NCBI GenBank assembly: GCA_024644185.1
Contig: JAHELM010000001.1
Coordinates: 1-26,049 of the forward strand
Source: Rhodospirillales bacterium
GTDB taxonomy: Bacteria > Pseudomonadota > Alphaproteobacteria > UBA8366 > JADFVY01
Direction of reading: 5' to 3'
Length of the DNA: 26,049 nt
In this document: positions 1 to 6,893 of the stretch, piece by piece
Position numbering within the stretch: position 1 is the first letter of the stretch
Layout: every line of letters starts with the position of its first letter
Notes under the pieces: generated by a model
The model's input: only the letters and a program-made list of their open reading frames with translations
Told to the model about the DNA's origin: nothing
Databases searched by the model: none
Position numbers and translations under genes: made by a program

Positions 1-701
1 AGATGCACCGCGACCGTGGTCGTGCCGACGTCGATGGCCAGGCCGAAGGCGCGGTCATGGAAGCCGGGCCAGACATGGATCAGCGTGCCGTCGTTGCGCA
101 GCGCGGCGGTGGCCTTCCATTCGCCCTGCCGCAACGCCGTCTGCAACACGTGCAGCACATGCAGATCGGCGGTACGCAATTCGACCTGCCATTGCGCCGC
201 CAGCGCCTCCTTCAGGCGTTCCAGATCGCCGGTCGGGTCGTGCATGTCGGGTTCGCGCACCTCGACATAGAACAGGCGGACCAGCGGGTCGATCTCGATC
301 GCCCGGGCCTCGGCCCGCTTGCGCACGACCTGCTTGTGCACCTGGCTTTCCGCCGGCACGTCGATGACCAGATCGCCGAGAATGCGGGTGTGGCATCCCA
401 GGCGGCGGCCGGCTTTCAGCCCTTTCTTGTCGGCATAGCGCTGCTCGACCGGACCGAATTCCGACAGATGCGCCGGCCGCGAGGAAATGCCGAATTTTGA
501 AAAGTCTCCGGTCGAAACCTCGACCTGGCAGCGCCCGCAGATCCCACGCCCGCCGCATACCGAATCCAGATCGACACCGAGGCCGCGCGCCGCCGCCAAC
601 AGCGAAGTGCCCCTGGCGAAACGGCCGCGCTTGCCGGACGGCGTGAAAACGACGGTGGCTTCGCCGCCGGCCTCGGTATGTCCGTTTCCGGTTTCGCTCA
701 C
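1..701 (-). CDS. ASKHA-domain / DUF4445 protein (RACo/RamA-type ATP-dependent reductive activator of corrinoid proteins) with N-terminal 2Fe-2S domain; truncated by the window edge
   Basis: Translated by hand (absent from the ORF track). GTG at 701-699 overlaps the upstream TGA (GTGA overlap) and has GGAG upstream. Reads VSETGNGHT...VVFTPSGKRG...DLDSVCGGRGICGRCQV...RRLGCH...AIDVGTTTV, i.e. a 2Fe-2S C-x5-C-x2-C...C motif followed by the ASKHA phosphate-1 motif DxGTT. Open to position 1. Confidence 0.9.
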   Translation of the reverse strand, partial: MSETGNGHTEAGGEATVVFTPSGKRGRFARGTSLLAAARGLGVDLDSVCGGRGICGRCQVEVSTGDFSKFGISSRPAHLSEFGPVEQRYADKKGLKAGRRLGCHTRILGDLVIDVPAESQVHKQVVRKRAEARAIEIDPLVRLFYVEVREPDMHDPTGDLERLKEALAAQWQVELRTADLHVLHVLQTALRQGEWKATAALRNDGTLIHVWPGFHDRAFGLAIDVGTTTVAVH

Positions 702-1609
702 GTACGGCTCCGCCGACGACCCTCGCGCTCGTGGCGGCGACCCTCGCCGCCGGCAGCCGCCGGTGCCGGTTCGCGATATTTGCGAATCCAGCGCGCGCAA
801 TCGGGATCGTGGCCCATCATCACGTCGGCGCCGCGGATGCCGGTCATTTCCTCTTCATGCAGCGGATTCATGATCGCCGAGGTCATGCCGGCGCCGATCG
901 CCATCGACAGGAACGATGCGTTCATGCCGTGCCGGTTGGGCAGGCCGAAACTGATATTCGAAGCGCCGCAGGTGGTGTTGACCCGCAATTCGTCATGCAG
1001 GCGTCGGATCAGCCGGAACACCGAGGCGCCGGCCTTGTTCACCGCGCCCACGGGCATGACCAGCGGGTCGACGACGATGTCGCTGGCCGGGATGCCGTAA
1101 TCGGCGGCGCGCTGGACGATCTTGCGGGCAACCTCGAAGCGCACGTCCGGGTCTTCGGAAATGCCGGTCTCGTCATTCGAGATGGCAACAACCGCGGCGC
1201 CGTATTTCTTGATCAGCGGCAGCACGGCTTCGAGGCGTTCCTCCTCGCCGGTCACCGAATTGACCAGCGCCTTGCCCTGGTAGACCGAGAGCCCGGCCTC
1301 CAGTGCGGCAACGATCGAGGAATCGATCGACAGCGGCACGTCGACCAGGCTTTGCACCAGCTTGATCGTCGCGGCCAGGATCGCCGGCTCGTCGGCCAGC
1401 GGAATGCCGGCATTGACGTCCAGCATGGTGGCGCCGGCCGCGACCTGGGCGACGGCATCCGCCTCGACACGGCTGAAATCGCCGTTCTTCATCTCTTCCA
1501 GCAGCAGCTTGCGGCCGGTCGGATTGATGCGTTCGCCGATGACGCAAAACGGGCGATCGAAGCCGATAATGACTTCCTTTTTCGCGGAGCTGACCACGGT
1601 ATCGGTCAT
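698..1609 (-). CDS. Methyltetrahydrofolate:corrinoid methyltransferase (stand-alone pterin-binding / MetH folate domain), 303 aa
   Basis: IGERINPTG, LDVNAG, LSIDSS, LVNSVTGE, DPLVMP and GASNISFGLP motifs of the DHPS-like MetH/AcsE folate-binding barrel. Start moved to ATG 1609 (AGGA upstream); the ORF-track extension is not homologous-looking. Confidence 0.9.
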   Translation of the reverse strand: MTDTVVSSAKKEVIIGFDRPFCVIGERINPTGRKLLLEEMKNGDFSRVEADAVAQVAAGATMLDVNAGIPLADEPAILAATIKLVQSLVDVPLSIDSSIVAALEAGLSVYQGKALVNSVTGEEERLEAVLPLIKKYGAAVVAISNDETGISEDPDVRFEVARKIVQRAADYGIPASDIVVDPLVMPVGAVNKAGASVFRLIRRLHDELRVNTTCGASNISFGLPNRHGMNASFLSMAIGAGMTSAIMNPLHEEEMTGIRGADVMMGHDPDCARWIRKYREPAPAAAGGEGRRHEREGRRRSRT

Positions 1610-1826
1610 GTCGACATCCTGTCGGTTCGTGTTCGGAATTCGTGATTTTGCGCCATGCCGCGCGGGCCGGACATATCCTGGACAAACGGTATTGGTTTCG
1701 CGGCCCGGTGTATCGCGAAGCCGCGCCACATACAATCGCGAAAGCGTCACTGGCGCAACCCGCCAATTGCCGACAATCCGAAGCGAAACCAAATCGAAAA
1801 ACGGCAACCCATGCTACCATCGCCGC

Positions 1827-2696
1827 ATGTGGACGCAACCGCCGTACCGCGCCCTGCTCTGTCTCGCCGCCGCCGGCTGGGCCTGGTCGACCCCACCAGC
1901 CATGGCCGACGAATCCGTGGCCGGCTGGATCAAATATACGCGTGCCTCCAGCATCTGCATCGGCAAGCCGGATACGCCGCTTTGCGCGGTGGAGACGGCG
2001 CTGGCCTGCCGGCTGCGCGGGAATGCCCGCCTGTGCGGCAAGGTCGGTCTGGCGCCAGAGCCCCAACCGGATGCCGGTCTGCCCGTTCCAAATCCGGACC
2101 CGGCCACGACGATCGAGGCCATCGCGGTGGAATACCGCGTGGAGGATTACGACGAGAGCCACGGCGGGCAGGCGCGGGTCGGGCTGGCGGTTCGCCATTA
2201 TGGGCAGAACGGGCTGGTCTGGCCGGAACAGGGCTGGCGGCTGGTCAACTATATGCTGACCCAAGGGTCCAAGGGCTGGCGGGTGGACGACATATCCTGG
2301 GCACCACAGCCGCGCTGGATCGGCCCGCGGGATGCCAGCAGCACCTGCCTGGGCGACATGCGGCTTCCGGCATGCGCCGTGGAGACCGACATCGCCTGCC
2401 GCGTTCGCGGCACGCCCGCCCTGTGCGAGCCCACGGGCAAGACAGCAACAGGTACGGGGGAGACGGTCACCTATGTTGTCGACCGGATACGCCGATCCGC
2501 CCCGCCCGGAAGCGACGCCTCACCCGATGACGTCACGCTGACCGTGTGGCTGGCGGAATCCGTGGAGTCTGCGCCGGGGCCGGACGATACCGACGGCGAC
2601 CCGCTGGCCCGGCCGCCGGTCTTCGCCATGGTCGCCTACACGCTGCAACGCAGCGGAAACGTCTGGCGGGTGACCGGACGCAGCGCGGTGCCCTGA
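1827..2696 (+). CDS. Hypothetical secreted protein, 289 aa, with two tandem ~130-aa 4-Cys domains
   Basis: In-frame ATG 1827 within ORF 1362..2696. Signal-peptide-like N-terminus (RALLCLAAAGWAWSTPPAMA/DE). The internal duplication supports real coding. The start site is uncertain because no clear RBS is visible. Confidence 0.75.
   Translation: MWTQPPYRALLCLAAAGWAWSTPPAMADESVAGWIKYTRASSICIGKPDTPLCAVETALACRLRGNARLCGKVGLAPEPQPDAGLPVPNPDPATTIEAIAVEYRVEDYDESHGGQARVGLAVRHYGQNGLVWPEQGWRLVNYMLTQGSKGWRVDDISWAPQPRWIGPRDASSTCLGDMRLPACAVETDIACRVRGTPALCEPTGKTATGTGETVTYVVDRIRRSAPPGSDASPDDVTLTVWLAESVESAPGPDDTDGDPLARPPVFAMVAYTLQRSGNVWRVTGRSAVP
1923..2672 (+). repeat. Intragenic protein-level tandem duplication (period 390 nt / 130 aa)
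   Basis: WIKYTRASSICIGKPDTPLCAVETALACRLRGNARLC versus WIGPRDASSTCLGDMRLPACAVETDIACRVRGTPALC; first Cys codons at 1956 and 2346, last at 2034 and 2424. C-terminal YMLTQGSKGWRV versus YTLQRSGNVWRV. Confidence 0.9.
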
Positions 2697-2702
2697 TTTT
2701 CC

Positions 2703-6013: not shown

Positions 6014-6064
6014 GGCAGGAAGATCGTTCGCCGCGGCATGGAAATCAATGCCGCGGCCGGGCGA

Positions 6065-6766
6065 TCAGGCGTGCGGACGGTTGTGCCGGCGCGCGATCAG
6101 GTCCTTCGCCGTTTCCACCGCCACCGCGGCGTCGCGGCAATAGGCGTCGGCACCCACGGCCTTGGCGAATTCCTCGTTCAGCGGCGCGCCGCCGACCATG
6201 ACGATATAATCGTCGCGGATGCCCTTTTCGATCATGGCGTCGATCACGACCTTCATATAGGGCATGGTGGTGGTCAGCAGCGCCGACATGCCAAGGATGT
6301 CGGGCTTGTGTTCCTCCAGCGCGTTCAGATAGTTCTCGACCGGGTTGTTGATGCCCAGGTTGATGACATCGAAGCCCGCGCCTTCCATCATCATGGCAAC
6401 CAGATTCTTGCCGATGTCGTGGATGTCGCCCTTGACCGTGCCGATCACCATCTTGCCCATCTTCGGCGCGCCGGTCTCGACCAGCAGCGGCCGCAGCACG
6501 TCCATCCCCTTCTTCATGGCGTTGGCCGCCATCAGAACCTCGGGCACGAACAGGATGCCGTCGCGGAAATCGACGCCGACGATACGCATGCCCTCGACCA
6601 GCGCCTTGGTCAGCACGTCGTAGGGGGTCCATTTGCGCTCAAGCAGGATATGGACGCTCTCGACGATCTCGTCGGCGAGACCGTCATACAGATCGTCCCA
6701 CATCTGCTCGACGAGTTCGTCGTCGTTCAGCGACCGGAGGTCGAGATCGTCACCGTCATCCGCCAT
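6065..6766 (-). CDS. Stand-alone corrinoid (B12-binding) protein, MetH cap + B12 domains, 233 aa
   Basis: GTVKGDIHDIGKNLV (DxHxxG), MSALLTTTM, MVGGAP; cap motif FVPEVLMAANAMK. Start set at ATG 6766 (GAGGG upstream). Confidence 0.95.
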   Translation of the reverse strand: MADDGDDLDLRSLNDDELVEQMWDDLYDGLADEIVESVHILLERKWTPYDVLTKALVEGMRIVGVDFRDGILFVPEVLMAANAMKKGMDVLRPLLVETGAPKMGKMVIGTVKGDIHDIGKNLVAMMMEGAGFDVINLGINNPVENYLNALEEHKPDILGMSALLTTTMPYMKVVIDAMIEKGIRDDYIVMVGGAPLNEEFAKAVGADAYCRDAAVAVETAKDLIARRHNRPHA

Positions 6767-6866
6767 GCCAAAGCCCTCTGAAAATCCGGCCGGCCGCATC
6801 GAATACGGCCCGCCCCATGTTGCGGCAGCATCGTCGCTACCACCTAGCACACTCGCTCTCGCATGC

Positions 6867-6893
6867 GCGACAAGAACTATTTAGGGTACGACA
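6867..6893 (-). promoter_or_regulatory. Direct repeat TGTCGT-N15-TGTCGC (21-bp period) about 100 bp upstream of the corrinoid gene; candidate AraC-family activator site
   Basis: CGACA at 6868-6872 and 6889-6893 on the + strand. The functional assignment is inference. Confidence 0.4.

Follow-up and report, generated by a model that had tools for sequence, protein, structure and literature searches.

Phaeobacter inhibens makes methionine with a three-part split methionine synthase that needs both DUF1638 and a RamA-like protein for function; B12-dependent methionine synthesis in Phaeobacter requires DUF1638, and a role of this protein in cobalamin reactivation is a proposal (Price 2018, PMC5764234). 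In Ruegeria pomeroyi, MtgBCDE is a dual methionine synthase/glycine betaine methyltransferase, with MetF2 adjoining MtgD (Mausz 2025, PMC12478193). B12-dependent glycine betaine demethylation by MtgBCD in aerobic bacteria was recognised only in 2025 (PMC12478193). Here we describe a split methyltransferase cluster from a Rhodospirillales bacterium (GCA_024644185.1, contig JAHELM010000001.1) in which a gene for a methyl-accepting chemotaxis protein (MCP) follows the corrinoid protein unit; it occupies one end of the 26,049-nucleotide stretch of DNA that was analysed, called the window below. How cells locate or perceive the substrates of MtgBCD is, to our knowledge, undescribed. Chemoreceptor genes beside catabolic genes for the attractant are known from other pathways, an example being NahY on the naphthalene plasmid of Pseudomonas putida G7.

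The account that we favor, with moderate confidence, is that a known split methyltransferase carries a variable slot between its two units and that this slot has recently gained the gene of a species-specific amine receptor, which is expressed mainly from its own promoter. The link between amine sensing and B12-dependent use of methylated amines is coherent in chemical terms and may have begun to be selected for. The MCP and the B12 cluster are not a conserved, integrated 'sense and demethylate' system, a possibility that had been raised in a sequence-only reading of the same DNA. Taken singly, the components are new members of known families, and their juxtaposition is undescribed and weakly supported as a functional unit.

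The window corresponds to bases 1-26049 of a 28,368-bp contig (C237), window base 1 being contig base 1. The contig belongs to a fragmented metagenome-assembled genome (MAG), designated G000, of an uncultured sediment bacterium (2.9 Mb in 507 contigs, 79% complete, GC ~65%). The runs that hold the window sequence are sediment metagenomes, and the nearest named relatives of the B12 locus are alphaproteobacterial MAGs and Rhodospirillales-type genera (Aestuariispira, Marivibrio). Gene calls from open reading frames (ORFs) and Pfam profile matches gave the following features:

6065-6766, minus strand: MtgC-type corrinoid protein, first gene of the upstream unit; B12-binding_2 (PF02607, 1.3e-17) and B12-binding (PF02310, 2.8e-28).
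5378-6013, minus strand: DUF1638 protein (Pfam, 7.2e-27).
5042-5344, minus strand: PF13769 'Virulence_fact' small protein, conserved third gene of the unit (Pfam, 1.7e-24).
4849-5041, no strand assigned: AT-rich spacer of 193 bp, GC 0.456, predicted promoter/operator region of the MCP gene.
2776-4848, minus strand: MCP of 690 amino acids with a transmembrane segment (TM), a periplasmic dCache_1AM-type sensor (approximately residues 30-320), a second TM, HAMP and MCPsignal (4e-33).
2715-2744, minus strand: intrinsic-terminator-like hairpin predicted to end the MCP transcript; 13 pairs, 12 of them G-C, a 4-nt loop and a T-run.
1830-2696, plus strand: secreted Cys-rich protein of 288 amino acids with a signal peptide and no Pfam family, here SecX (ORF).
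698-1609, minus strand: MtgD-type pterin-binding methyl-cobalamin:tetrahydrofolate methyltransferase; Pterin_bind (PF00809, 5.4e-27).
3-650, minus strand: RamA/RACo-type corrinoid reductive activase, N-terminal part only, with Fer2 (2Fe-2S ferredoxin) and RACo_linker; the gene is cut by the contig end and its ATPase part lies outside the sequence.

The gene families, the common orientation of the first four genes and the gaps between them (51 bp between corrinoid protein and DUF1638, 33 bp between DUF1638 and PF13769, and 193 bp between PF13769 and MCP) match the sequence-only reading exactly, and the methyltransferase and the RACo-type activase indeed form a second unit. That reading named the families correctly but overlooked the plus-strand SecX gene, which is convergent with the MCP gene and separates it from the methyltransferase/activase unit. 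Contigs from two independent studies bridge the PF13769/MCP boundary (X1 record 5, 4561-5778; X2 record 14, 4823-6433), and the junction is therefore no assembly artefact.

Two sets of loci were used for comparison. The close set contained 14 loci from relatives, and same-family genomes were searched in numbers of 12 to 13 (G001-G012 being the 12); the wider set contained 80 loci (L042-L121) that were fetched with DUF1638 as the anchor and that come from Proteobacteria of the alpha, beta and gamma classes and from a few other phyla. Most of the 80 loci share the order corrinoid protein-DUF1638-PF13769-[MTHFR_C (DUF5981), MTHFR]-MeTr-RACo. Besides DUF1638 itself (80), the corrinoid protein is present in 72, PF13769 in 68, the methyltransferase in 65 and the activase in 62. 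The window corrinoid protein is 74-92% identical to those adjoining DUF1638 (72/80 loci), and the methyltransferase is 67-94% identical to its counterparts in 65/80 loci, each time with the activase as the next gene. A gene of the MttB family lies within 10 kb in 24/80 loci. DUF1638 was present in 9 of 13 same-family genomes.

Like MtgBCDE and the P. inhibens system, the bacterium has a separate corrinoid protein (PF02607 plus PF02310) beside a DUF1638 gene, a separate pterin-binding methyltransferase with a RamA-like activase, and MttB-family and PF02574 genes elsewhere in the genome, with no MetH activation domain found. Unlike in MtgBCDE, the two units in the window are split by SecX, on the opposite strand, and the MCP gene instead of by metF2. 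The likeness to MtgBCDE is drawn from domains and gene order. By these features, we identify the B12 genes as the split cobalamin methyltransferase already known from Proteobacteria, with mtgC-DUF1638-PF13769 and mtgD-ramA as its units. The earlier assignment of the genes to modules of a corrinoid methyl-transfer system is thereby borne out by the Pfam matches, the order in the 80 loci and the two described systems (Price 2018; Mausz 2025).

Other contigs of G000 carry four MttB-family genes (PF06253) and one gene for a stand-alone PF02574 homocysteine S-methyltransferase, and the genome holds two MTHFR genes. The corrinoid protein in the window is the only such protein found in G000, and a MetH activation domain was not found in this 79%-complete genome. 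Because of this single corrinoid protein, the stand-alone PF02574 protein and the missing match to a MetH activation domain, mtgC probably serves methionine synthesis too, and the window cluster is probably the methionine synthase of the bacterium besides any demethylation. A purely demethylating function of the cluster is not supported. A further observation concerns the third gene of the upstream unit. The PF13769 protein comes next after DUF1638 in 68/80 Mtg loci, is undiscussed in PMC5764234 and PMC12478193, and probably belongs to the Mtg system as an accessory part that has gone unrecognised.

The position of the MCP gene corresponds to a slot whose content differs between lineages. In most other Proteobacteria the slot holds the DUF5981/MTHFR pair. 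Four same-family genomes (L030, L031, L032 and L040) have corrinoid protein-DUF1638-PF13769, an opposite-strand SecX and methyltransferase-activase, with no MCP; their SecX homologs, from several genera, are 30-43% identical and lie in the same slot and orientation. No MCP signalling domain was found within the fetched flanks of the relatives' loci (14/14), and an MCP between PF13769 and the methyltransferase was found in 0/80 of the wider loci, one of which has an MCP within 10 kb (8 kb off, on the other strand). DNA similarity to the same-family relatives spans every gene except window 2700-5050, which contains the MCP gene, the spacer and the terminator. A search for the ligand-binding sensor domain at E<=1e-20 gave no match in 13 same-family genomes; its nearest database relatives show 54-49% identity, and an exact look-up of the MCP in public contigs gave no match. 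Two other slot contents were seen in Marivibrio and Aestuariispira, where the slot holds a gene for an ArsR-HTH/SAM-methyltransferase fusion (L043:13642-14652 and L056:13093-14121); in Aestuariispira it additionally holds a second corrinoid protein gene. This fusion and the second corrinoid gene add to the evidence for the slot as a hot spot of gene turnover.

Two close sequences date the insertion. A metagenomic ortholog (L122) is 88% identical to the MCP in amino acids and 85% in nucleotides, and its upstream region is unrelated, without PF13769 or DUF1638; the homology begins 10 nt before the ATG. A strain that is ~96% identical, from the sediment metagenome X2 of a different study, keeps the same junction, with single-base indels in the spacer. 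The MCP gene has a GC content at third codon positions (GC3) of 0.84, equal to that of its neighbours, and its signalling domain is 80-90% identical to paralogs within G000. Since the slot lacks an MCP in the relatives and the L122 ortholog has another upstream region, and since the GC3 is native and close signalling-domain paralogs exist in the genome, we conclude from these comparisons that the MCP reached the slot by a recent rearrangement within the lineage rather than by transfer from a foreign source, and that this arrangement is peculiar to the species. The sequence-only reading knew of no chemoreceptor in this cluster type, which agrees with the text of Mausz 2025, where chemotaxis is unmentioned, and with the 0/94 other loci that have an MCP in the slot. 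It had also held that a juxtaposition peculiar to this one genome would speak against its proposal; the adjacency proved to be confined to a species-level lineage made up of the window and the ~96% strain in X2, which comes close to that.

What the receptor senses was approached through its sensor domain. The best match in the PDB was 9HEH (3e-54), followed by PacA (7PSG, 7e-42), 3LIB (1.7e-38) and 3LI8 (7.7e-37), both of them Methanosarcina mazei kinase sensors, PctD (1e-24) and McpX (6e-24). The PacA structure 7PSG was solved with betaine, and PacA binds choline and trimethylamine at ~0.1 mM; the dCache_1AM receptors also include PctD (7PRQ/7PRR, choline and acetylcholine) and McpX (6D8V, proline betaine) (PMC9040839; PMC10589655). 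The Methanosarcina mazei kinase sensor R1 (3LIB) binds dimethylamine (0.5 uM) and trimethylamine (10 uM) and neither betaine nor choline, and dCache_1AM members vary widely in specificity (PMC9040839; PMC10589655). We took the motif positions from the text of PMC10589655 (PctD R103, W155, F188, Y189, M215, S217 and D235) and mapped them through HMMER alignments to PacA and 3LIB. The MCP has R117, W137, Y160, Y161, I187, S189 and D207 at these positions, residues that are conserved in kind, and the distances from the first aromatic (27, 29 and 47 residues) agree exactly between the MCP and PctD. MCP Y176 aligns with PacA Y184. Such a bulky aromatic is linked to poor binding of most quaternary amines (PMC10589655). 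A 'DGRDA-F' insertion and a 'VPYWN' pocket strand are common to the MCP and 3LIB.

The MCP sensor shares the predicted double-Cache fold family of PacA, PctD, McpX and 3LIB, and by its motif it is a member of the dCache_1AM amine-binding class. In view of the matches to PacA and 3LIB, the conserved motif positions and the known ligands of these proteins, the ligand is very probably a small methylated or quaternary amine. The expectation that the sensor would suit methyl donors is upheld to this extent, in that the dCache_1AM class fits methylated amines.

The predicted ligand class of the MCP matches the substrate class of MttB-family enzymes. Neighbourhoods were collected for 28 MCP homologs, namely L130 and 27 others (7 through exact look-up and 20 through a sample of 400 alphaproteobacterial genomes). 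L130, from an alphaproteobacterial MAG (GCA_016861145.1), encodes a reciprocal-best homolog with 53% identity over 694 residues; its gene follows an MttB gene on the same strand after 170 bp, and a gene for an OYE/FadH-type Fe-S flavoenzyme stands directly before MttB (L130:4431-10085). This flavoenzyme-MttB pair also exists on contig C292 of G000. One type of receptor is therefore found next to two separate parts of the pathway, one in the window lineage and one in that of L130. No corrinoid-pathway gene was found in the other 27 of the 28 homolog neighbourhoods. Like NahY, the window MCP gene adjoins genes that metabolise the presumed ligand class; in NahY-type cases co-regulation and taxis were shown by experiment, whereas the window adjacency is confined to one species. 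We regard a real functional link between receptor and pathway as a possibility that falls somewhat short of an even chance. If the link is true, the receptor is a ready candidate for ligand deorphanisation and would give the first hint of methylated-amine sensing wired to a B12 demethylation pathway in sediments; as the evidence stands, there is one species-level rearrangement joining two described parts, a testable lead and no new mechanism.

How the MCP gene is expressed depends on the 193-bp spacer in front of it. Its GC content of 0.456 compares with 0.64 and 0.67 in the 33- and 51-bp gaps and with 0.58-0.65 in other intergenic regions, and ~110 nt before the MCP start codon, at 4950-4966, it has a perfect 7-3-7 palindrome. 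The AT-rich composition and the perfect palindrome suggest that the MCP has its own promoter in the spacer. The palindrome core, TGTTT-N3-AAACA, has two copies in the 2.9-Mb genome. The second copy (G000:C151:6619-6635, L159) precedes a Pot-type amine/polyamine ABC transporter operon (solute-binding protein/ATPase) by 83 nt, and the two copies are a possible shared operator for an amine-responsive regulator. The spacer shows no similarity to the relatives' DNA and folds no more stably than shuffled sequences (z -0.77). Rfam at E<=1 over 1-8200 gave chance-level miRNA/sRNA matches on the terminator only, and no riboswitch.

In relatives, the mtgC unit ends after PF13769, and terminator scans of the PF13769-SecX intergenic regions of L032 and L040 detected none. 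A scan of 4849-5041 gave only a weak 5-pair site at 4879-4866, and the strong hairpin at 2744-2715 lies 31 nt after the MCP stop; the absence of a strong terminator before the MCP gene and the presence of one after it (13 pairs, 12 G-C) had been noted correctly from the sequence. Terminator-like sites overall numbered 6, versus 5.5 in shuffled sequence. Since no strong terminator intervenes, some read-through from the upstream unit is possible. Two metatranscriptome runs (X4 and X8) were compared with 2600-6900, and only X4 record 20 (5871-6222, at the corrinoid/DUF1638 junction) looks like this organism. The other X4/X8 RNA pieces, which stem from other organisms, map to the conserved MCP hairpin and to the B12 motif; none covers the MCP sensor or the spacer, and contigs cannot reveal transcript ends. 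Co-transcription of the MCP gene with the corrinoid gene, on which the sequence-only reading was built, found no positive evidence, and the spacer with its low GC content and palindrome looks regulatory rather than intra-operon.

The architecture of the MCP (TM-sensor-TM-HAMP-MCPsignal) fits a chemotaxis receptor, and G000 encodes CheW, the C-terminal part of CheA with REC, CheB and CheR. There are at least 14 MCP genes in G000 and 10-18 per same-family genome. Searches of the 79%-complete G000 gave no match to the FlhA, flagellin or rod-protein families, 12/12 same-family genomes (one closed, five above 92% completeness) likewise gave no match to FlhA, and no PilT scored above the family cut-off. 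Because no flagellar genes were found in G000 or the 12 family genomes, the steering of cells that had been ascribed to the MCP is an assumption, and this part of the earlier proposal is uncertain. Boxes of the CtrA type (TTAA-N7-TTAA) are rare in G000, with 33 in all. A full box lies upstream of 4 of 10 MCP genes and a one-mismatch box upstream of 2 more, compared with 1.3% of background windows; the four full boxes are 30-95 nt upstream of predicted start codons (contigs C261, C7, C225 and C468). This distribution points to a regulation of chemoreceptors by CtrA in a lineage whose genomes gave no match to flagellar genes. A de novo 8-mer search of the same 10 upstream regions also returned a CCGGAT-like word (7/10 versus 11.5% background), which was marginal after multiple testing and was dropped.

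Put together, these data would fit the following scheme. Two transcription units, mtgC-DUF1638-PF13769 and mtgD-ramA, would flank the variable slot. The system would make methionine and, with MttB-family enzymes encoded elsewhere, demethylate glycine betaine and probably other quaternary amines. The slot holds the MTHFR pair in most Proteobacteria, SecX in the family of this bacterium, and SecX plus the MCP only in this species, where the MCP gene would have arrived recently via a rearrangement inside the genome. Small methylated or quaternary amines are the most likely ligands of the periplasmic dCache_1AM domain, and the receptor would signal through the CheA/W/Y/B/R core encoded elsewhere. 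Expression of the MCP gene most likely starts for the most part at a regulated promoter of its own within the spacer, with some read-through from mtgC-DUF1638-PF13769 possible.

Several observations weigh against this scheme. A scan with the sigma-70 consensus found no promoter-like site in the spacer. There is no strong terminator between PF13769 and MCP, so that read-through could be the main source of expression. No CtrA-type box was found for the window MCP (window 1-7000), in contrast to 6/10 other MCP genes; the regulation of the window MCP therefore differs from that of most paralogs, a difference that fits an amine-responsive promoter and operon read-through equally well. The ligand assignment comes from homology at moderate identity, in a class with widely differing specificities. 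The L130 adjacency is one case in 28 where by rough estimate ~0.14 is expected by chance for immediate adjacency, and is not statistically compelling. Finally, the genome is 79% complete.

The first rival reading is that the MCP gene is the functional fourth gene of an mtgC-DUF1638-PF13769 operon, co-transcribed and co-induced with it, and guides the cell to methyl donors. We consider this rather unlikely. The four genes share a strand, with no strong terminator in 4849-5041 and a strong one after the MCP, as an operon would have it, but the spacer is long, AT-rich and palindrome-bearing when set against the 33- and 51-bp operon gaps. An operon would also account for an MCP gene without the CtrA box borne by most paralogs. 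The junction is retained at ~4% strain divergence, yet the adjacency is missing from all relatives (14 + 80 loci) and from the 88% ortholog L122. With regard to function, the class of the sensor suits methylated amines, and L130 provides a second, independent MCP-MttB adjacency. Against induction and guidance, mtgC is probably constitutive for methionine synthesis, and co-expression alone would therefore not imply induction by substrate; nor were flagellar genes found through which the cell would be guided.

A second rival denies the adjacency any meaning. On this view, MCP genes are numerous and mobile, one of them happened to land in a recombination-prone slot, and its product senses amines for unrelated reasons or controls a non-motility output. 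The number of MCP genes in G000 and its family, the varying slot content across lineages and the 27/28 homolog neighbourhoods without corrinoid genes all agree with this reading, as do FlhA not being found in the 12 family genomes and the flagellin and rod families not being found in G000. The pocket, moreover, resembles that of 3LIB, a binder of di- and trimethylamine but not of betaine or choline. A random MCP, however, would not be expected to match the ligand class of the pathway beside it and in addition to have a reciprocal-best homolog next to MttB in L130, and the junction is kept in a diverged strain. We judge this reading to be improbable.

That the corrinoid protein and DUF1638 form a cytoplasmic B12-state sensor feeding the MCP is very improbable, since the DUF1638 protein is a separate one here, arranged with MeTr and RACo as in canonical Mtg clusters, an MCP occupies the PF13769-MeTr slot in 0/80 loci (only MCPs, not other signalling proteins, were looked for), and the MCP has an ordinary periplasmic sensor with HAMP alone between membrane and signalling domain.

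Within the favored account of a recently gained amine receptor, the subfamily might have a broader role as a dedicated sensor for non-pyrrolysine MttB substrates that was recruited twice independently to different parts of one B12-dependent pathway, behind mtgC-DUF1638-PF13769 in the window and behind the flavoenzyme/MttB pair in L130, and that couples the availability of methylated amines to a Che pathway with a non-swimming output; we think this unlikely. The flavoenzyme gene before MttB in L130 has a counterpart in the bacterium itself. Contig C292 of G000 (L151:401-4781) carries the same OYE/FadH-MttB pair, followed on the other strand by a BetI-like TetR regulator and an ABC binding protein, and the pair is a candidate two-step module for quaternary-amine demethylation.

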